Positions 3,282 through 59,484 of a stretch of DNA of 64,000 bases are shown piece after piece (position 1 is the first letter of the stretch; the number at the start of each line of letters is the position of its first letter). Location of the stretch: positions 7,449 through 71,448 of the forward strand of contig CAMYMH010000005.1 in NCBI GenBank assembly GCA_947259275.1, given 5' to 3'. This stretch comes from an uncultured Acidimicrobiaceae bacterium. Lineage in GTDB: Bacteria > Actinomycetota > Acidimicrobiia > Spongiisociales > SHLN01. The translations under genes were made by a program, and so were the position numbers. A model generated the notes under the pieces. The model worked only from the letters and a program-made list of their open reading frames with translations, searched no databases and was not told where the DNA came from.

Positions 3282-3753
3282 GCTGGTTCCACTTCTCGCG
3301 AACGTCTTCGTTGGTGATCTTCTCCTGCAACAGCACAATGCCCTCCATGAGGGCCTCCGGGCGGGGCGGACAGCCGGGGACGTAGACATCCACCGGGATG
3401 ATCTGGTCGACGCCCTTGGTCACCGAATACGAGTCCCAATAGGGGCCCCCACAGTTGGAGCAGGAGCCCATCGAGATGACGTACTTGGGGCCCGGCATCT
3501 GGTCGTAGAGGCGCCGGATTGCCGGTGACATCTTGTCGGTGACCGTTCCGGCGACCACCATGAGGTCCGCCTGCCGCGGCGAGGCGGGCAGTGGAATGAT
3601 CCCGAATCGCATGAAGTCGTAGCGGGGCCCCGAAGCGGCCATCATCTCGATGGCGCAGCAGGCGAGCCCGAACTGGAAGAACCAGAGCGAGTACTTGCGG
3701 GACCAGTTGAGCAACCATGAGAGCGGCTTGGGAGCTCCGAACTTCTCGATCAC
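3262..3753 (-). CDS. nuoB: NADH-quinone oxidoreductase subunit B (paralog 1)
   Basis: NuoB/PSST motifs CCAIEMM and [11 protein letters not shown]. The GTG start at 3751-3753 overlaps the nuoA stop (GTGA). Confidence 0.88.
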
Positions 3754-4193
3754 TCCCACTTGAGGACCCCTTTGCGCACGGCGTACACGAGGCCCATCAG
3801 CAGAATGGCGATGAAGATGAACATCTCCCACAGGGCAAAGGCTCCCAGCGACTCGATCTTGAGCGCCCACGGAAAAAGGAAGACGGCTTCGACGTCGAAT
3901 ATCAGAAAGAGCAGCGCAAACACGTAGTAGCGGATGTGGGTCTGGCTATAGCCGCCGCCGATTGGGTCGATGCCCGACTCATAGGTTTCGAGCTTGGCGG
4001 GCGTGGGGTTGCTCGGCCGAATGAGCGCTGCCAGGCCGAGCAAGCCTCCCACGAGAACTGCCCCGAAGGCACCGAAGGCGAGGACGGTCAGATATTGGTC
4101 AAAGTACTCCGACAACAACGCTCCTCGGCCTGCCGGGTGGGCGGACTGCGAGGAGTATAGGCGGCGGGGTACGGCCTCAAAAGCCACCCGCAA
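3750..4193 (-). CDS. nuoA: NADH-quinone oxidoreductase subunit A (paralog 1); true start probably downstream of 4193
   Basis: C-terminal two-thirds matches NuoA/ND3 (YESGIDP...[22 protein letters not shown]). Confidence 0.8.
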
Positions 4194-4275
4194 ATGGCTC
4201 CCGCGGGCAGTTTTGGCGCACCCGTGGCCCTCGCCCGCCCCGGTGGAGTGGAGCCGGATCTTCTAGCCTCCGACG

Positions 4276-6886: not shown

Positions 6887-8146
6887 CTACTGCTGCCCCC
6901 GTTCGTCGGCCTCTACCGAATCCTCCACAGGCGGTGGTTCCAAGCCGAGCAACTGGAGTCGGGGACCCATACCCCAGATGACGACCAATAGGTAGACGAA
7001 GAAACCCGCCAGCGGGATGATGCGCACGATCCGCCATCCGATGGCAGCCACGACGAACGACCCGATGGCCGCGTATCGATTCCTGGTGACCCGCCGGCCG
7101 AGCGCCGCCAACGCGGGAACGGCACCGGCAAACAGGCCGAAAACCCAGAAGCCGAACGCCAGCAATGCAATCGGGGCGAGGATGACGGTAAATAGAGACA
7201 CGACGGCCGCCACCGGAACCAGCACAAACAGCCCGAGCCCGACCAGAAACGACGTGGCCGACCGGGACCACGCCCGATCGGTTGCCCGGCGCGTCACCTG
7301 CGGGAACAGGTGGAACAAAAGGATTCCGGTGAAGAGCAGCCCGATGAATCGAAGCGCCTGAAACAGCAGCCGGAGTGCCCGCACCGAGAGGTCGGTGGGG
7401 ATGGGCTGGACCTCAGCAACCAGTCCGAGGTCGGCCGTTGGCGAGATATCGGTGCGAGCCGTCCAGCCCCGCACATTTTGGCCGATCAACCCCTGACGCC
7501 AGCTGACGGCCGACCCCACCACCGCCGAATCGGCAATCGTGAGCCGATGGATACCGACATCGATGTCTTCGGCCACGGTCCCGTCGACATACAGGCCCCA
7601 CAGCAATTCACCCCGCACCTCACCCCCGACCATTCCGGATTGGCGGGCCGATAAACCGGCCAGCAGCACATCGCGTCCGACCGTGCCGTCCACTTCCAGG
7701 CTGCGGGCGAAGGAAAGCACGTCATCGCCTACCGATCCGCCAATGTCGACCTCCCAGGCGGCGACCCGCACGCTGCCGCCGACCTCTCCCTGAATGTCGA
7801 CGCTCCAGGCGAGACCGTTGACGTCCCCTTCCACCACCCCGTTGATGATCAGATTGCGGGTAGTGACCGTGAGGTCGCCTTCGATCCGGCCCTCAACGAT
7901 CACCCGGGAGCCGGCGGCAAACAGGTCCTCCTCGATCACCCGGCCCGACTGCACTACCACCGTCCCGGACACGGAAATGGCTCCCACCGGCGCCGGGACC
8001 ACCAGGGCGGCAAGGAACGCAACGCTCAGGAGTGGAGCGGCGATGAAGGTGCGCTTCCGGTTCCCTCCCCCCGACGAGGGACGCTCACTCATCGAACACC
8101 CCCTCCGATCCTGTGGGCCGGCTCCACTGCGGTTTGGGTGCGACAC
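6887..8146 (-). CDS. membrane protein with N-terminal bactofilin-like (polymer-forming, beta-helical) repeats and a C-terminal polytopic TM domain
   Basis: 419 aa. Residues ~60-220 are repeated GxVxGD/VxGxV units. Residues ~270-400 form 4-5 hydrophobic helices. The likely start is the internal M (MSERPSS...) near 8092. Confidence 0.5.
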   Translation of the reverse strand: MSHPNRSGAGPQDRRGCSMSERPSSGGGNRKRTFIAAPLLSVAFLAALVVPAPVGAISVSGTVVVQSGRVIEEDLFAAGSRVIVEGRIEGDLTVTTRNLIINGVVEGDVNGLAWSVDIQGEVGGSVRVAAWEVDIGGSVGDDVLSFARSLEVDGTVGRDVLLAGLSARQSGMVGGEVRGELLWGLYVDGTVAEDIDVGIHRLTIADSAVVGSAVSWRQGLIGQNVRGWTARTDISPTADLGLVAEVQPIPTDLSVRALRLLFQALRFIGLLFTGILLFHLFPQVTRRATDRAWSRSATSFLVGLGLFVLVPVAAVVSLFTVILAPIALLAFGFWVFGLFAGAVPALAALGRRVTRNRYAAIGSFVVAAIGWRIVRIIPLAGFFVYLLVVIWGMGPRLQLLGLEPPPVEDSVEADERGQQ

Positions 8147-47348: not shown

Positions 47349-48332
47349 ATGAAGACCCGAAAGGCCATGACTCTCATCGCCGTACTCGCCCTCGTGGCGG
47401 CCGCCTGCGGCGGCGCCGCCACCGAATCGGGCAGCGTCGGGTCACAACCCGCCAGCCCGAGCACTGTGGCGCAATCTCCGGCAACCTCAATGGCGCCGGC
47501 AGACACGGCGCCGGCCCCCGGAGACAGTGGTTCGACCGCCGCCTCCGGACTGCCAGGCGTCCTGGCCGCCTTCGATCAGGCCACCGACTCGAACTCGGGC
47601 CGCATGGAAGGCTCACTTACCATGGTGGGCATCAACGGATTCCCCGGCGGTATCTTGGAGATGCCGTTCAATGGCGCGTTCGCCCGCAACGGTGACTACT
47701 CATTTGCGCTCGACATGAGCGGGCTGGCAGAGGCGAGCGGCGAAGAGGTTCCACCGGAGTTCGCCGTCATGCTCGGCGAGATGGAGATCCGCCAGATCGG
47801 CGACACCTCATACATTCGATACCCCTTCTTCAGCATGTTTCTCGGGCTGGAAACGGAGTGGCTGGCTGCCCCGGTGGATGAGGGCTCGCAGCTGACCGAT
47901 GGGCTTGGCTTCGTCACTCCATCCCGGCCGACAGACATCCTCGGCGGCTTTGCCAACGCCGATGCAACCATCACCGACCTCGGCCGAGAGAGCGTCAACG
48001 GCCTCGACACCACCCACTACCGGGTGCTGTTCGACACCGAATCGCTCTACGCGTTGGCAACCCCCGAGGAGCTTGCCGAGCTGGAGGCCGGGGGCATCCC
48101 CGATGTTGAGCTTCCCATGGACGTCTGGATCACCGACTCCGGCATCCTCACCCGATTCGTGATGGACGTTGCCGGCTCGGGCTTTGAAAGCGACGGCGGT
48201 GAGAGTTTCGAGCGAATGGTGGTGACCTACGACCTGTTCGACCTCGGCGCCGACATCGATGTGCCGGCACCCCCGGCCAGCGAGGTGACTGACGCCGACG
48301 AGCTCGGCAACGGCTTCAGCTTCGGCGGCTGA
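47349..48332 (+). CDS. lipoprotein of unknown function
   Basis: Lipobox LVAAACGG, a Ser/Pro/Ala-rich linker, then a ~250-aa globular domain. Confidence 0.6.
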   Translation: MKTRKAMTLIAVLALVAAACGGAATESGSVGSQPASPSTVAQSPATSMAPADTAPAPGDSGSTAASGLPGVLAAFDQATDSNSGRMEGSLTMVGINGFPGGILEMPFNGAFARNGDYSFALDMSGLAEASGEEVPPEFAVMLGEMEIRQIGDTSYIRYPFFSMFLGLETEWLAAPVDEGSQLTDGLGFVTPSRPTDILGGFANADATITDLGRESVNGLDTTHYRVLFDTESLYALATPEELAELEAGGIPDVELPMDVWITDSGILTRFVMDVAGSGFESDGGESFERMVVTYDLFDLGADIDVPAPPASEVTDADELGNGFSFGG

Positions 48333-53928: not shown

Positions 53929-55164
53929 GTGCACCGCCTCAGACTCCTGCTACCTCTTGCCCTGATCGCCGCCGCCTGCCAAGGCGACGTGGCAGAGCCG
54001 ACCGCTCCCGTGGCCACGTCCACGACCACCACCACTGTCGCTCCGACCACAACGACCACGACCACCACGACAACGACGACCCTTCCGCCAACTCCGACGA
54101 CGATTCCTTCTCAACCGGCAAAGGATGCGACCGCACCGGCACCGGATTCCACCGTTCCCGCCTCCGGCGAGGGCGCCGTCGTCATTGCCGCCGGAGGTGC
54201 CGACCTCTTCGAAAATCGCGACTCCTCCGAACCGTATGTCCGCGCCCACGAGGGCCTGCTGTTTCCCGTCGTCGGTCGCGACGGCGAATGGCTGGAGCTG
54301 CTCGACCACTGCGACGATCCGAGCTGGGTCCGGTTCGACGAGGTGGCGTTCACGCCCGCCCGCACCAACCAGCAATTAGTTGGCAGCGGGTTCGAATTCT
54401 CCAACGCCGTCCTGGTAATCGACCCGGGCCACGGAGGACCGAACATCGGCGCAGTCGGACCCACCGGCCTCATCGAGAAGGAAGTCAACCTCGACATCGC
54501 CCGGCGCACCCGCGACCTGCTGAAAACTCCCCACACCGTAGATTGGGAAACCGGCGAGATCCTCGATGGATTGGCCATCCCCCCGGCCGGACAGGTGTGG
54601 TTCACCAGGCCCGAAGGACCGGAGGGCGCCGACATCGAGGCCGGCCTCACCTTCAGGACGACCCTCGCCAACAGCCTGAACGCCCATGCGCTGGTTTCCA
54701 TCCACAACAACGCCGCCCCCGATGGCCCGTTCGACGGCCCGGGCAGCGAGGTGTATCACCAGGTCACCGACCTGAGATCAAAAAGACTGAGCGGTCTGAT
54801 ACTCGAAGAGATGCGCCGGGGGTTCTCAGCATTTGAAGCCGAGTGGGTAGGCGACGACGAGGCCGGGGCCAAGGTTCGGGTCAAGGAGAACGGCATGGAT
54901 GTGTACGGCATCCTCCGACAGTCGAAGGTACCGGCCGTCATCGCCGAAGGCGTCTATATCTCGAACGAGTCCGAGGAAGCACTTTTGGCCACGCCCGAGT
55001 TCCGTCAGGCCTACGCGGACGCCGTGTACCGGGCCCTGGTTCGTTACATGACCACCGACGATCGTGGATCCGGCTTCGTGGATACCGAGCCGTTCACAGC
55101 CGGAGGCCTCGGCTCGGGAGCCCCGGTCCAGGAGTGCACGGTGGCCGCCCAGCCCGAGGAGTGA
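53929..55164 (+). CDS. N-acetylmuramoyl-L-alanine amidase (Amidase_3) lipoprotein with a Thr-rich linker
   Basis: Lipobox LALIAAAC, poly-Thr linker, Amidase_3 motifs (VIDPGHGG...E...H). Confidence 0.85.
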   Translation: MHRLRLLLPLALIAAACQGDVAEPTAPVATSTTTTTVAPTTTTTTTTTTTTLPPTPTTIPSQPAKDATAPAPDSTVPASGEGAVVIAAGGADLFENRDSSEPYVRAHEGLLFPVVGRDGEWLELLDHCDDPSWVRFDEVAFTPARTNQQLVGSGFEFSNAVLVIDPGHGGPNIGAVGPTGLIEKEVNLDIARRTRDLLKTPHTVDWETGEILDGLAIPPAGQVWFTRPEGPEGADIEAGLTFRTTLANSLNAHALVSIHNNAAPDGPFDGPGSEVYHQVTDLRSKRLSGLILEEMRRGFSAFEAEWVGDDEAGAKVRVKENGMDVYGILRQSKVPAVIAEGVYISNESEEALLATPEFRQAYADAVYRALVRYMTTDDRGSGFVDTEPFTAGGLGSGAPVQECTVAAQPEE

Positions 55165-55212
55165 CCTGCTTTTCGTGTTCTCAGCCCGGTGAACCTCCCA
55201 TCGCCCCACCGG

Positions 55213-56751
55213 TCAATGCGAGGCAGGTTGCAGCCTGGACCCCTCCCCCAGCTTCATGCTCCCGAGCCGCGTCCAGGCCTGGGCGGCGCAGAACGGCACG
55301 CATTGGTGCTTCCCGCCGACAGTTCCGACATGGACGCAGCATTGGAGCAGCCGCTCCTCGATCAGAGTATTGACGTCCATGAACGGCTTAACGGTGATGC
55401 GTTTCACACGGGTAGCCACCAGCCGCCGAAGAGCATCGGGGTCTCTCACAGCCCGGCCCGCCAGGCGCACCAGCGTGGAGAGGCCCAGGTCGCAACGCCG
55501 CAGCACAACATCAAACAGGTCGCTGATCTTCGGGTGGGTGAGGGATGAGCGCTCGCTAAACAAGCCGTGCAACGACTCTTTGACAAGCACCCGCAGGTCG
55601 GCGTCGAGGGCAGGATGCACGATGCAATTGCCCACCAGGCCCAGGTGATCCTGCAGCCGATCCTGGCCCAGCAGCCGGACGATGCTGGTCCAATCGCCGG
55701 CATCGGTTCGCACCATGTATCCGACGCTGGCGCAGTGCGGATGAGAACAAGGAAGGGCGATGAGGTCGTGAGCCGTCACGACACCGCCGGTCTGGGGTGC
55801 CAGGCGCCGGAGGACACCGGTGTTGGTGAGACGGTCGAGAGGATCGATTCGCTCGTACCTTCCCGACCCGAAGACGGGTTGAACGGCGACCCCACCAACG
55901 AAGGGGGTCTCGAGAGCGAAGCGGACCACCCGCCCGATCTCATGGTCATTGACCCCGAGGGCGGCCGTCATCGTCAGTGTCGTGAATACCCCCGCCGCGG
56001 TGAGGCGATCGACCGCCGCCCGCTTCAAGCGACGCAGGTCGGCACCCCGATGGAAGCGGTAGGTCGCCTCCTCGAAACCGTCGAATTGGAGGTACACCTC
56101 GAGACGTGAACGATGCCGCTCCAGGAAGTTGAGCAGCTCGTGGTCGCGAGCCACCCGGACACCGTTTGTGTTCAGGATGAGCCGCACAATGTCGCGCTCC
56201 AGCAGCTGATCGATCAGCGAGAAGAGCTGGGGGTGGAGGGTCGGCTCACCGCCGCTGATCATCAACACGTCAAGCCGGCCGCCTTCGAGATTGAGGCGTT
56301 GATCGACGTTGGCGAGCACGTCTTCGACCGGGGCGACTCCGGTGAGCGCGGGGGACGAGCCGGCGTAGCAGGTAGGGCAGTTCAGGTCGCAGCGTTCGGT
56401 GATGTCCTCCAGCAGGATGCAGGTGTGCTGGATCTGGCCTGCACCAAGACCCCGCTCGTAGACGACCGGGATCGGATCGGTGTTGCCGGGTGCGTCCGGA
56501 GTGGACGGCTTGGTCGGGGCGGTCCATTGCTCCAGGTAGTCGAGGAGCTCAGCGTCCTCTTCGTAAAGCGTCACGATCGGGCCGTGGTCGGGGCAGGTTC
56601 GCAGCAGCCAGACCTTGCCTTCGGCCTCGGCCAGTTGCCCTGCCAAACGACGGACATCACGAAGGGGTCCCCCCGGGGAATCAATGTGGCAGGCGGGACA
56701 GAACGCGAACACCGAGCGCCGGATGCGATCGAATGTGAGCGGCGCGTTCAT
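55213..56751 (-). CDS. radical SAM enzyme of unknown specificity with an N-terminal Cys4 zinc-ribbon-like motif and a C-terminal Cys cluster
   Basis: CDLNCPTC (CxxxCxxC) at ~residue 120, with GGEPTLHP downstream. N-terminal CPAC...CPDH. C-terminal CCVHVG...CVPFC. Its stop overlaps the lgt start by 4 nt. Confidence 0.7.
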   Translation of the reverse strand: MNAPLTFDRIRRSVFAFCPACHIDSPGGPLRDVRRLAGQLAEAEGKVWLLRTCPDHGPIVTLYEEDAELLDYLEQWTAPTKPSTPDAPGNTDPIPVVYERGLGAGQIQHTCILLEDITERCDLNCPTCYAGSSPALTGVAPVEDVLANVDQRLNLEGGRLDVLMISGGEPTLHPQLFSLIDQLLERDIVRLILNTNGVRVARDHELLNFLERHRSRLEVYLQFDGFEEATYRFHRGADLRRLKRAAVDRLTAAGVFTTLTMTAALGVNDHEIGRVVRFALETPFVGGVAVQPVFGSGRYERIDPLDRLTNTGVLRRLAPQTGGVVTAHDLIALPCSHPHCASVGYMVRTDAGDWTSIVRLLGQDRLQDHLGLVGNCIVHPALDADLRVLVKESLHGLFSERSSLTHPKISDLFDVVLRRCDLGLSTLVRLAGRAVRDPDALRRLVATRVKRITVKPFMDVNTLIEERLLQCCVHVGTVGGKHQCVPFCAAQAWTRLGSMKLGEGSRLQPASH

Positions 56752-57563
56752 GAGATAGTCCGGGCCGCCATCGGCCGGATCGGCACCGGCGCCGGCCGGT
56801 AGGCGCGGTGGGCGAACTGACGGGCGAAGTAGGCGAACAGCACCGGCATGGTCGCCAGCAGGAAGATCTGCGACCCGGACAGCCCGAGTACGAACGTGTC
56901 GTTGCCGCGGACAAACTCGACGACGAACCGGAAAGTGCCGTAGACGATCAAGAAGACCTTGAACAGCTCACCGGGTACATCCACCCGCGGTCGCAGCCAG
57001 CGCAACAGCCCATACAGTGCGAGCAGTACCGCGATTTCGTAGAGGAAAGAAGGATGCAGGGGAACGCCCGACATGCACTGCGGGCAATCAGGGATCCGGG
57101 CCCCGACCTCGGGCGAAACAGTGATGCCCCACGGCAGCGAGGTCGGGGTCCCGATCGGCTCGGTCAGAAAGCACCCGACCCGGCCGACCGCAATCCCCAG
57201 CGCGACCGCCGGCGCGAAGAGATCTCCCGTTTTGTGCGGATAGCCAACCAGGCGCTTGGTGATGATGACACCGAGATAGGCCCCGGCCAGCCCGCCCAGA
57301 ACACTCTTGCCCCCGTGCAGCCACAGACCCACCAAACTGGGTTCGGGATCATCGACCAGGTAGCGCCAGCCTGCCCCGAGCTTGGCAAACACAGCACCCG
57401 AGACGAGCGAGCCGGCTGCAATCGTCCACAAGCGCGGATCTTGGAGGTTCCGCCGCCGGCCCTCCAGCCAGAACACGCCAACCGCAGCGCACACACCGAG
57501 GGCAACCAAGGCATCATGGGTCCCGATCTCGAGCGAACCCAATCGGGACAGAACCGGAAACAC
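56748..57563 (-). CDS. lgt: prolipoprotein diacylglyceryl transferase family protein
   Basis: Lgt signature blocks: HGGKSVLGGLAG, GRVGCF...EP.G, LHPSFLYE, FRFVVEFVRG. Start assigned to GTG 57561-57563, overlapping the upstream micro-ORF stop (TAGTG). The track ORF extends to 57641. Confidence 0.75.
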   Translation of the reverse strand: MFPVLSRLGSLEIGTHDALVALGVCAAVGVFWLEGRRRNLQDPRLWTIAAGSLVSGAVFAKLGAGWRYLVDDPEPSLVGLWLHGGKSVLGGLAGAYLGVIITKRLVGYPHKTGDLFAPAVALGIAVGRVGCFLTEPIGTPTSLPWGITVSPEVGARIPDCPQCMSGVPLHPSFLYEIAVLLALYGLLRWLRPRVDVPGELFKVFLIVYGTFRFVVEFVRGNDTFVLGLSGSQIFLLATMPVLFAYFARQFAHRAYRPAPVPIRPMAARTIS

Positions 57564-57676
57564 TAGAAACCCAGAACCCGGACGCAAACTCCCCCACCCA
57601 GGACAACGAGCGCGCCGACAACCAGCAATGCGATCACCCATCCGGGCAGTGACTTGCGGGGTGGTTGGTCATTCAT
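57563..57676 (-). CDS. 37-aa single-TM micropeptide
   Basis: MNDQPPRKSLPGWVIALLVVGALVVLGGGVCVRVLGF. The ATG is preceded by GGAAGGAGAAGG and overlaps the ICMT stop (ATGAATGA). Confidence 0.5.
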   Translation of the reverse strand: MNDQPPRKSLPGWVIALLVVGALVVLGGGVCVRVLGF

Positions 57677-58322
57677 GACCTTCTCCTTCCTTGAGTGAAA
57701 CGGGCCTTGGCCGGAGCATTTGCGGGCGGGGCCACCAGGCGGGCACGAGTCTCGAATACTCGGACCAGGCCGGTCCGAACTCGGCTGCCAACAACTGCTC
57801 TTCATGTCTTGCCTTGATGGTCAAGCCGAGTACGGAACAAACGGCGAACACCATCGCCCAGGTTCGATAGACGGCCAGCCCTCCCACGGCCGCCAGACCG
57901 ATGCCGGCGTACATCGGATGCCGCACATACCGGAACGGTCCTGCCGTAACGAGTTGATGGTTGGCATACAGCTCGGTACCCAGAGACGACGAGACGTTGT
58001 ACATCTCGCCGAGAGTGCGATGCCCCCATAAGTAGAGCACCCAACCGGCCGATCCCAACGCTGCTCCAACCACGAGGGCACCTAGTCGCAGCCAGCCGGT
58101 AGGCGTGCCGGGCAGCGGCCTCCACAAGACCACCCACACGGTGAAATAGGGCACCGCTATCAACAGATAGGATGTCAGGGCCCCGAACCTGGGAGCCAGA
58201 CCGAGCCCGCGTCCTGCCGCCCGCCGCCGGCCCCGGGCTGCGGCTCGACCGGCCACCATCCACGCCGACATCAGCCCGGCGACCCCTGCGATCCGGAGGG
58301 CGCGCTCGAGGATTTCAATCAT
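57669..58322 (-). CDS. isoprenylcysteine carboxyl methyltransferase (ICMT) / phospholipid methyltransferase family membrane protein
   Basis: Five or more TM helices and a C-terminal RHPMYAG...E motif typical of ICMT/PEMT. Start assigned at MIEILERAL. Confidence 0.7.
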   Translation of the reverse strand: MIEILERALRIAGVAGLMSAWMVAGRAAARGRRRAAGRGLGLAPRFGALTSYLLIAVPYFTVWVVLWRPLPGTPTGWLRLGALVVGAALGSAGWVLYLWGHRTLGEMYNVSSSLGTELYANHQLVTAGPFRYVRHPMYAGIGLAAVGGLAVYRTWAMVFAVCSVLGLTIKARHEEQLLAAEFGPAWSEYSRLVPAWWPRPQMLRPRPVSLKEGEGHE

Positions 58323-58899
58323 CACCCGCTCCCGGGCTTTGATGCGCCACCACAGATCGCAGTTCAACTTCGGCGATGAAACGCCGAGCCCGCGGGAGAT
58401 TTGCCAGGCAGACGGGCACGGTCGATGCCGGCCGGTTGCGCTCCTCGATGCGTACCACGGCGATGAACCCCAACAGCAGGAATGCCACTGCTGCAACGCT
58501 GCAGGCGGCGGTAACGATGGCGCCGAATCCACCGAAAGCGGCGGCCAGGCCGAGCGCGGCAGCCACGATCATGCGACCCGGGTTCAACTTGGTGCCAAGG
58601 GAGACAGTGCTCAGCTCCAGCAGATCGACTGCCAACCGCCGCTTCCCAACCGGGATTAGGCCGAGGATGGTCCGCGGCGTGGTGACTCTGAGCTGCCTCT
58701 GGTCGACGGTCAGACCTGATCGGAGATACCAGCTCACCCCGTTGGTCAGAAGCACCACGGATACCTCGGACCGCTGGTCGCCGGACTGGATCTCCGACGA
58801 CTCGAGTCGCGATTCCACCCCCACCTCCCGGCCGGCAGTCACCTTCATTGATGCCACGTCACAGTTGGTGCCGTCAGGGGCAAACGTCACCTTGGGCAA
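58315..58899 (-). CDS. hypothetical membrane protein (N-terminal soluble ~100 aa, two TM helices)
   Basis: The ORF overlaps the ICMT start by 8 nt. No recognisable catalytic motif. Confidence 0.5.
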   Translation of the reverse strand: MPKVTFAPDGTNCDVASMKVTAGREVGVESRLESSEIQSGDQRSEVSVVLLTNGVSWYLRSGLTVDQRQLRVTTPRTILGLIPVGKRRLAVDLLELSTVSLGTKLNPGRMIVAAALGLAAAFGGFGAIVTAACSVAAVAFLLLGFIAVVRIEERNRPASTVPVCLANLPRARRFIAEVELRSVVAHQSPGAGDD

Positions 58900-58947
58900 G
58901 ACGAGGAGGGCGCGCGGTCACGCTTTGGCTGGCGGATCCGCCGGCGC

Positions 58948-59484
58948 CTACTCGCTGATCGGGACCTCGGGGGGTGCCGGGCGGGCCTGGTGGAGCTCGG
59001 CTCGACGGTCACGGATTCGCTCGAGGAGGTTGGTGAGCAGCGTCTCGATGTGCTCGTAGCTCGACTCGACCACGTCCTCTGACTCGAGGCGAATGGTGCG
59101 CGCCTGCTCCTCGGCGTTGCGAACCAGGATGTTGGCTTCCTCGACGGCTTCAGTCATCACCTGGGTCTCGCTCACCATCTGAGCACCGGTTTCCTTGGCC
59201 CGGCGCATGATCTCGGCCGACTGTTCATTGGTTTGGGTGATGAACGCCTCGCGCTCACGGACCATCCAGCGAGCCGTCCGCAGCTCCTCCGGGAGCCGCT
59301 CTCGCAAGTCGCGCAAGCGCTCGATGAAGTCGTTGCGGTCGATGCTGGCATTACCGGACAGCGGCATGCCGCGGGCCTGCTCGACGGTCACTATGAGCTC
59401 CTCGACCATGTCCTGGAGCTCACCAACACTCGGCGGAGCCTCCTCCGTATCTTCCTCGACATCGAACTCGAATTCGTCGGTCAT
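58948..59484 (-). CDS. acidic coiled-coil protein (DivIVA/ATPase-b-like)
   Basis: 178 aa, Glu/Arg-rich heptad-like sequence. Overlaps the coaD stop. Confidence 0.55.
   Translation of the reverse strand: MTDEFEFDVEEDTEEAPPSVGELQDMVEELIVTVEQARGMPLSGNASIDRNDFIERLRDLRERLPEELRTARWMVREREAFITQTNEQSAEIMRRAKETGAQMVSETQVMTEAVEEANILVRNAEEQARTIRLESEDVVESSYEHIETLLTNLLERIRDRRAELHQARPAPPEVPISE

Follow-up and report, generated by a model that had tools for sequence, protein, structure and literature searches.

Several described systems come close to the subject of this work, a string of five genes at positions 55213-58899 of a 64,000-nucleotide stretch of DNA (hereafter the window) from an uncultured Acidimicrobiaceae bacterium. 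Canonical Lgt, the prolipoprotein diacylglyceryl transferase for which the E. coli enzyme (5AZB) serves here as reference, acts on a lipobox Cys at the outer membrane interface. Eukaryotic CaaX processing combines a prenyltransferase, the protease Rce1 and an isoprenylcysteine methyltransferase (ICMT/Ste14), and enzymes of the ICMT family take S-adenosylmethionine (SAM) from the cytoplasm. GDGT-MAS, or Tes (MJ0619; 7TOL, 7TOM), is an archaeal radical SAM (rSAM) enzyme, and the function of its bacterial homologs is stated in the literature as untested or hypothesised only (PMC8941075; bioRxiv 2024.06.25.600576). Finally, Mycolicibacterium smegmatis (M. smegmatis) has, besides a separate main Lgt, a second Lgt homolog, MSMEG_5408, which has been regarded as redundant or as a weak Lgt whose role is unknown, with no link to an rSAM enzyme mentioned (bioRxiv 10.1101/2025.03.27.645668).

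The five genes of the window include the core of a conserved, widespread and uncharacterised module, consisting of a small membrane protein with a G-x-C motif near its end, an Lgt-like enzyme and a Tes-like rSAM enzyme. By curated thresholds or by defining residues, this module falls outside Tes, TrsS, canonical Lgt and Ste14-type ICMT. Two enzymes of known kinds, each in a new variant, are combined in it with small membrane proteins that had not been classified before. The features of the locus, with the evidence for each, are as follows; open reading frames are abbreviated ORF.

55213-56751, minus strand: rSAM enzyme, 512 amino acids (Pfam, NCBIfam, profile match to 7TOL)
56748-57563, minus strand: Lgt-like membrane enzyme, 271 amino acids, GTG start (Pfam LGT, residue counts, synteny)
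57563-57676, minus strand: membrane peptide of 37 amino acids (helix, G-x-C and tail pattern, homologs, coding GC pattern)
57679-57690, minus strand: Shine-Dalgarno-like purine run GGAAGGAGAAGG, upstream of the ATG of the peptide and within the 3' end of the methyltransferase gene
57669-58322, minus strand: ICMT/PEMT-family membrane methyltransferase, 217 amino acids (Pfam PEMT and ICMT)
58315-58899, minus strand: ORF5, membrane-anchored PH/PTB-like protein, probable start at 58848 giving 177 amino acids (fold, homolog lengths)

Gene string and conservation of the module

Conservation was surveyed in 83 loci, the window included, drawn from a sample of 80 loci in genomes and several in metagenomes. 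Of the 78 informative loci, spread over four phyla (Actinomycetota, Gemmatimonadota, Chloroflexota and Acidobacteriota), 77 have an Lgt-like gene no more than 2 kb from the rSAM gene; in another five, the available sequence stops too near the rSAM gene to be informative. The Lgt-like gene is located upstream and on the same strand in all but one locus (L056, where it is divergent at 438-1190), and in an Oscillochloridaceae locus (L019) only a C-terminal Lgt-like remnant at 7720-7872 is left upstream of an intact rSAM gene. Carriers among the Actinomycetota comprise Acidimicrobiia as well as Actinomycetes with the cultured genera Mycolicibacterium, Mycobacterium, Nocardia, Nonomuraea and Janibacter. 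In the complete genome of M. monacense (L089), the Lgt-like gene, a gene for a 122-amino-acid protein and the rSAM gene follow each other, again with overlapping junctions. More than 5000 database proteins match the rSAM enzyme at E <= 1e-10, with 60-65% identity across the four phyla, and its closest relatives are from Acidimicrobiia. The module is mobile as a unit, because other lineages carry it in unrelated contexts.

In the window itself, reading the minus strand of 55150-59000 gave five consecutive ORFs chained by start/stop overlaps of 1-8 nt, and all four junctions agree with those given in an earlier sequence-only reading of this DNA. The stop codon of ORF5 and the start of the ICMT-like gene share ATGATTGA at 58315-58322 (TGA ending at 58315, ATG at 58322), the ICMT-like stop and the start of the 37-amino-acid ORF share ATGAATGA at 57669-57676, the stop of the latter and the GTG start of the Lgt-like gene form TAGTG at 57561-57565, and the Lgt-like stop and the rSAM start form ATGA at 56748-56751. 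The sequence-only reading took these overlaps to imply obligate co-translation, which goes past what they show. Similar overlaps are common elsewhere in the window (recG/rsmD, rsmD/coaD, and coaD with an ORF of 178 amino acids), and the junctions are therefore an operon-like arrangement that is unremarkable by itself and not beyond chance. It is the conservation of the gene set across other genomes that is far beyond chance. The same reading had asked for co-occurrence of rSAM, Lgt and ICMT genes across genomes: the first two do travel together, as counted above, while the ICMT-like gene belongs to a sub-variant only.

The start of the Lgt-like gene was placed at the GTG at 57563. An upstream ATG at 57641 was ruled out, as the extension has a GC content at third codon positions (GC3) of 0.38 versus 0.79 for the Lgt-like gene, the Pfam match begins at the GTG, and the public gene call likewise has 271 amino acids. 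A scan for sigma-70 promoters and terminators yielded nothing useful.

The three core components

The rSAM enzyme is matched by the Pfam families Radical_SAM (PF04055, 3.7e-18) and Zn_ribbon_HMPTM (PF23545, 1.1e-8). A profile of its family, built from 14 relatives, aligned with GDGT-MAS (7TOL) at E 1.1e-42 over residues 33-494, and the metal ligands known for GDGT-MAS (PMC9433317) were compared along this whole-length alignment. The N-terminal rubredoxin-type Zn ribbon CxxC...CxxH (C18, C21, C53 and H56), the radical SAM motif CX3CX2C (C121-x3-C125-x2-C128) and the cysteines C471, C472 and C488 of the C-terminal CC...PFC motif are kept; ribbon and radical SAM motif are invariant in the family. 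A further C-terminal Cys is C484, and the family has gained an invariant motif of its own, LPCSHPHC (C335, H337, H339, C340). These further invariant Cys/His motifs bear out the extra Cys clusters noticed in the sequence-only reading.

Curated models place the enzyme near Tes, yet outside it. TrsS (NF045646) was the best-scoring NCBIfam model, with 215 bits over residues 34-490 versus a cut-off of 490, so that the enzyme is set apart from TrsS by score; Tes (NF045702) gave 164.2 bits versus a cut-off of 450. Against SPASM/twitch maturase models only the core (about residues 110-280) matched, with 23-39 bits versus cut-offs of 170-850. Thus, among the options left by the sequence-only reading, the tetraether-synthase-like one is that on which the Pfam and NCBIfam models and the 7TOL profile match agree, and SPASM features were not found. 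Judged by these alignments, the enzyme is a distinct subfamily of the Tes superfamily; apart from its motifs and scores, it differs from GDGT-MAS in being bacterial and in being paired with an Lgt-like gene, which archaea do not have.

The Lgt-like enzyme is a clear member of Pfam LGT (PF01790, 5.5e-34, 118 bits versus a cut-off of 24.9) and aligns with E. coli Lgt 5AZB at E 1.3e-7, although its scores lie below the cut-offs of all six NCBIfam lgt models (for example TIGR00544, 65.3 versus 118.9 bits, and NF000778, 73 versus 334 bits). When 76 family members were aligned and read in E. coli numbering, R143, E151, G154, H196, Y235, R239, E243 and R246 were kept in all 76, including R143 and R239, which by alignment are the phosphate-binding and gating residues. 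The canonical signature consists of Y26, H103 (or Y, W or F) and N146, according to a published list of required or conserved Lgt residues (bioRxiv 10.1101/2025.03.27.645668). In the family studied here it is not found: Y26 is replaced by His in 75, H103 by Leu in 71 and N146 by Cys in all 76 proteins. Because the new Cys/His pair is invariant, these replacements point to changed chemistry rather than to decay. The "specialised paralog" suspected in the sequence-only reading is in good agreement with both the scores and the three replaced residues.

A second peculiarity of the Lgt-like enzyme is a C-x-x-C motif in its outer "head" region, located just before a conserved HPS motif, which is present in at least 61 of the 76 proteins and which E. 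coli Lgt does not have; in the window it reads DCPQC, at about 57070-57085. Head C-x-x-C, C146 and the G-x-C of the partner protein add up to four cysteines predicted on the outer face. Both Y26H and N146C are also reported for MSMEG_5408 (bioRxiv 10.1101/2025.03.27.645668), and the likeness to this protein rests on those reported residues. Close relatives of the module Lgt-like enzyme, among them those of M. monacense and M. wolinskyi, adjoin an rSAM gene.

No second lgt was found in the 64-kb window. Two plus-strand genes of the window encode proteins with lipoprotein-type starts: an Amidase_3 cell-wall hydrolase at 53929-55164, which is convergent on the rSAM gene and carries the signal ...LALIAAAC (the same neighbour is found in L085), and a 327-amino-acid protein without a Pfam family at 47349-48332, starting ...LALVAAAC. 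Since these are lipobox-type sequences, the organism is expected to make canonical-lipobox proteins and to have a canonical lgt elsewhere in its genome.

The third component is a small membrane protein. In about two thirds of the loci, a gap of 300-650 nt between the Lgt-like and rSAM genes holds such a protein, and in the others, the window included, a small ORF lies just upstream of the Lgt-like gene. When all ORFs around the rSAM gene were clustered de novo by BLAST, shadow ORFs within conserved genes dominated the result, and the small partners were found by inspecting the intergenic gaps. The proteins share almost no sequence. What they have in common is the stretch from the last hydrophobic helix to G-x-C, followed by a short tail. 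In 65 of 82 loci, an ORF that bears this pattern stops no more than 60-100 nt from the start of the Lgt-like or rSAM gene, and the helix, G-x-C and tail pattern occurred in 66 of 225 ORF ends at these junctions versus 49 of 17078 elsewhere, an approximately 100-fold difference. Neither the small partner proteins nor the product of the fourth gene (described below) had a match above threshold in Pfam or NCBIfam.

The 37-amino-acid peptide of the window, MNDQPPRKSLPGWVIALLVVGALVVLGGGVCVRVLGF, is a minimal form of this component, with a basic N-terminal region, one transmembrane helix, G-x-C and a tail of six residues (end segment …RKSLPGWVIALLVVGALVVLGGGVCVRVLGF). Its ribosome-binding site is strong (AAGGAAGGAGAAGGTC-ATG), and GGAGG-type sites occupy the same place before the counterpart ORFs in L085, L086 and L091, where the homologs are called as genes; the codon-position GC pattern fits a coding frame. 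The transmembrane peptide listed in the sequence-only reading thus holds up as a real component, by the recurrence of the pattern and by its spacing geometry. In M. monacense the counterpart is the protein of 122 amino acids, with the C-terminal end GICTGINPSLYAT.

The spacing within these proteins is regular. The charged residue that most closely precedes the helix is K or R in 61 of 66 cases, the distance from the basic residue to Cys is 19-20 amino acids in 42 of 66, and Cys itself stands 5-16 residues from the C-terminus; the N-terminal region has a net charge of about +2, and the tail is uncharged, with a median of nine residues. Since 19-20 residues correspond to one membrane thickness and the N-terminal region is basic, the helix is predicted to be N-in/C-out, with Cys at the outer interface. 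This geometry resembles the lipobox and makes the small protein a candidate acceptor of the Lgt-like enzyme. As in canonical Lgt substrates, the predicted acceptor Cys would lie where a hydrophobic helix, preceded by a basic region, reaches the outer face; unlike canonical Lgt, the Lgt-like enzyme has its partner protein encoded beside it and is itself coupled to an rSAM enzyme. Two copies of the small protein stand by a single enzyme pair in several loci, either in tandem (L021, L023 and L083) or with one upstream and one in the gap (L035 and L039). This doubling beside one enzyme pair fits a substrate role better than a fixed subunit.

Some features are limited to parts of the family. Many longer small proteins carry at the N-terminus a "YLREHSxRYSLxALRxQL" domain that weakly resembles RecX_HTH1, with a score below threshold, while others have a proline-rich N-terminus. 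A tail C-T-[GA]-[LVI]-N-P-x-[LMI]-Y after the Cys is common to the proteins of Mycobacterium, Mycolicibacterium, Nocardia and Nonomuraea (loci L048, L049, L055, L061, L063, L066-L068, L070-L074, L076-L081 and L089), whereas other phyla share only G-x-C.

Accessory genes and flanking region

The two remaining genes of the string form an accessory pair. The methyltransferase matches the Pfam families PEMT (PF04191, 38.3 bits, cut-off 25) and ICMT (PF04140, 37.9 bits, cut-off 24) with about 2e-9 each; in NCBIfam, it scored 58.6 bits with the isoprenylcysteine methyltransferase model NF040696 (cut-off 160) and 29.9 bits with MddA (cut-off 270). ORF5 is predicted to be a PH/PTB-like seven-strand sandwich with a C-terminal helix and an inserted transmembrane hairpin. 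It always occurs with the ICMT-like gene, and its Cys164, in the motif VPVC, is nearly invariant. Because its homologs have 150-170 amino acids and conservation sets in near residue 45, the start of ORF5 is more likely the ATG at 58848.

The pair was present in four of the 83 surveyed loci (the window, L004, L054 and L062), and four further module loci with the pair (L085, L086, L090 and L091) were reached through relatives of the methyltransferase or of ORF5. The order ORF5, methyltransferase, peptide, Lgt-like gene and rSAM gene is repeated in four distinct flanking contexts, including cases in which the identity of ORF5 is as low as 26%, and the five-gene variant is therefore a real, conserved sub-variant. 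The ICMT-like gene as a member of the core was rejected on the low count and on relatives with about 52-55% identity that have no module nearby (L087 and L088). A Rce1-like protease was likewise rejected as a member of the system: no protease of the Rce1 or Ste24 type was found in the window or in the other loci except L086, where a divergent Rce1-like gene lies at 3519-4199 on the minus strand, an adjacency that is probably coincidental.

Much more widespread than the accessory pair is a fourth gene, which comes immediately after the rSAM gene in 68 of 81 other loci (for example L001, 9584-9955, and L002, 9588-9860). It encodes a two-helix membrane protein of 90-120 amino acids, with two conserved cysteines in the motifs DPxRFCVFTT and S[RK]C[VF]LR[RD]PRL. 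L086 has this gene as well as the ICMT-like/ORF5 pair.

In the window, the module lies within a conserved housekeeping stretch (41366-63944) that runs from a fakA-like gene, recG, rsmD and coaD through the module to a cyclase-TPR protein, plsX, rnc, an S8 peptidase, a GGDEF-EAL protein and fpg, and lipid-related genes are among these. Directly upstream of ORF5, at 58948-59484 on the minus strand and overlapping the coaD stop codon, lies the 178-amino-acid gene; its product is acidic and probably a coiled coil, has no Pfam family, and is found at the same place in L085. A plus-strand ORF at 58376-59059 (227 amino acids), antisense to ORF5 and to the 178-amino-acid gene, was discarded as a shadow ORF: its GC3 is high (0.80) but GC1 is lower than GC2, and no homolog supports it.

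Proposed chemistry, alternatives and meaning

Gene set, conservation, family assignments, active-site changes and small-protein geometry are seen directly in the loci; from them and from family knowledge we infer which lipid is the donor, what accepts it, in which order the steps run and what product results. The module probably builds a modified lipid on the dedicated small protein. In the reading that we favour, if still tentatively, it is a dedicated protein-lipid module in which the Lgt-like enzyme would take a glycerolipid moiety from a phospholipid of the membrane and attach it to the small-protein thiol as a thioether. The Tes-like enzyme would then apply 5'-deoxyadenosyl radical chemistry, together with its C-terminal auxiliary cluster, to unactivated acyl-chain carbons of that lipid and join or bridge the chain ends, so that the protein would end up carrying a remodelled lipid that possibly spans the membrane. 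The ICMT/PEMT-type methyltransferase and ORF5, added in the lineage of the window, probably methylate a lipid-like group at the cytoplasmic face and not the lipidated Cys. With rather more doubt, the module may represent a new kind of protein lipidation, in which an Lgt paralog lipidates an outer-face Cys and a Tes-type rSAM enzyme cross-links the acyl ends, so that a macrocyclic or membrane-spanning lipid would be held on a protein.

Several observations weigh against a dedicated protein-lipid module of this kind. Its main weakness is topological: Cys and the active site of the Lgt-like enzyme are predicted to face outward, whereas the rSAM and ICMT-like enzymes use cytoplasmic SAM, and the link from face to face is unexplained. 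The connection may be made by the hairpin proteins or by chain ends that lie at the mid-plane of the bilayer. Moreover, where GDGT-MAS has the ligands of its N-terminal auxiliary [4Fe-4S] cluster (C73, C77, C80 and a His), the rSAM family has A, R, G and Q, and the labile Met439 aligns with an invariant Lys455, an invariant Met458 following three residues on. As the family lacks the N-terminal auxiliary cluster and has a Lys in line with Met439, the chemistry of the rSAM enzyme may differ from that of Tes. The acceptor motif also departs from the canonical lipobox, with G at -2 and a bulky V, F, I or L at -1 instead of [ASTVI][GAS]C. Seventeen of 82 loci miss the strict small-protein pattern, some of them carrying an internal G-x-C, and the fourth gene is absent from the window and its close relatives.

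Among the alternatives, remodelling of bulk membrane lipids survives best, even if we regard it as unlikely. The Tes-like enzyme would then couple the acyl chains of ordinary phospholipids into membrane-spanning products of the type of diabolic acid or branched glycerol dialkyl glycerol tetraethers (brGDGTs), with the Lgt-like protein presenting the glycerolipid and the small protein as a helper. This would agree with the full-length homology of the rSAM enzyme to GDGT-MAS, with Acidobacteriota among the carriers, and with the binding of phosphatidylglycerol by the Lgt family. Synthesis of brGDGTs by bacterial Tes homologs is also proposed in the literature (PMC8941075; bioRxiv 2024.06.25.600576). 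However, bulk remodelling leaves unexplained why the Cys of the small protein is so strictly placed and why Cys146 and His26 are invariant. Nor are carriers like Mycolicibacterium and Nocardia known to contain membrane-spanning lipids. Furthermore, among 14 acidobacterial producers of iso-diabolic acid, only three were found to have Tes homologs (PMC13159169).

It appears improbable to us that the small protein is a fixed subunit of a complex that does something else than transfer lipid, its Cys joining Cys146 and the head C-x-x-C in a metal site or a thiol-disulfide relay on the outer face. Every component does have an invariant Cys (G-x-C, C146 and the head C-x-x-C, RFC and S[RK]C of the fourth gene, and VPVC of ORF5), and the genes are tightly coupled in translation. 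Against this stands the invariance of the phosphate-binding arginines and of the other catalytic residues of Lgt, which suggests that a glycerophospholipid is still handled. Two small-protein copies in several loci, and the high variability of the N-terminal part of the small protein, also speak against a fixed subunit.

The last two alternatives are poorly supported, because there is no conserved protease, the methyltransferase is an accessory, the active-site changes are invariant and the synteny extends across phyla. The sequence-only reading had proposed lipidation followed by carboxymethylation, with an added radical step. On the model of CaaX processing, Lgt would lipidate the Cys, the short tail would be cut off, and the ICMT-like enzyme would methylate the C-terminal carboxylate thus exposed. 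The parallels are a Cys near the C-terminus of the small protein, a thiol-lipidating enzyme, an ICMT-family gene directly before the peptide gene in the five-gene variant, and the Rce1-like gene adjoining the set in L086. Nevertheless, the lipid transferase is unrelated to that of CaaX processing, the ICMT-like gene is missing from most loci, and a protease occurs in L086 only and not in the window. Both the Cys and the tail behind it are predicted to lie outside the membrane while an ICMT would draw its SAM from the cytoplasm, and the score with the isoprenylcysteine methyltransferase model is far below its cut-off; lipidation followed by carboxymethylation is thus not borne out as the conserved scheme of the module, and we consider it very improbable. 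That an ordinary housekeeping lgt stands by chance in a co-directional string of unrelated genes is hardly credible: although the genes follow recG, rsmD and coaD on the same strand, overlaps are common in the genome and relatives are publicly annotated as "prolipoprotein diacylglyceryl transferase", the changes in the active site are invariant, the scores fall below every equivalog cut-off, synteny with the rSAM gene spans four phyla and many flanking contexts, and M. smegmatis has its separate main Lgt beside the Y26H/N146C homolog.

The sequence-only reading had supposed that the combination is not a described system, and this is in line with what was found. No paper, Pfam family or NCBIfam family was found that describes the module. 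Full-text literature searches returned no paper that joins an Lgt homolog to a Tes-like enzyme, the paper defining TrsS being outside this comparison, and papers on bacterial Tes/Mss or lipid-modifying rSAM enzymes (including PMC13159169 and bioRxiv 2024.06.25.600576) do not mention the module. A search for MSMEG_5406-5410 returned only an unrelated zinc-regulon table.

Bacterial Tes homologs serve as genomic markers for producers of brGDGTs, and brGDGTs underlie widely used palaeoclimate proxies. A large and highly conserved clade of Tes homologs that is tied to an altered Lgt and a Cys-bearing small protein bears on this use and on the second Lgt homolog with altered residues that many actinobacteria retain, M. 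smegmatis among them. The module is a warning that not every Tes homolog is a tetraether-lipid gene, nor every PF01790 protein a housekeeping Lgt. The predictions made here can be tested in cultured, genetically tractable Mycolicibacterium and Nocardia. If the new kind of protein lipidation is real, many metagenomic "bacterial Tes homologs" now counted as brGDGT markers would belong to a protein-modifying system, and the second Lgt of mycobacteria would gain a function.

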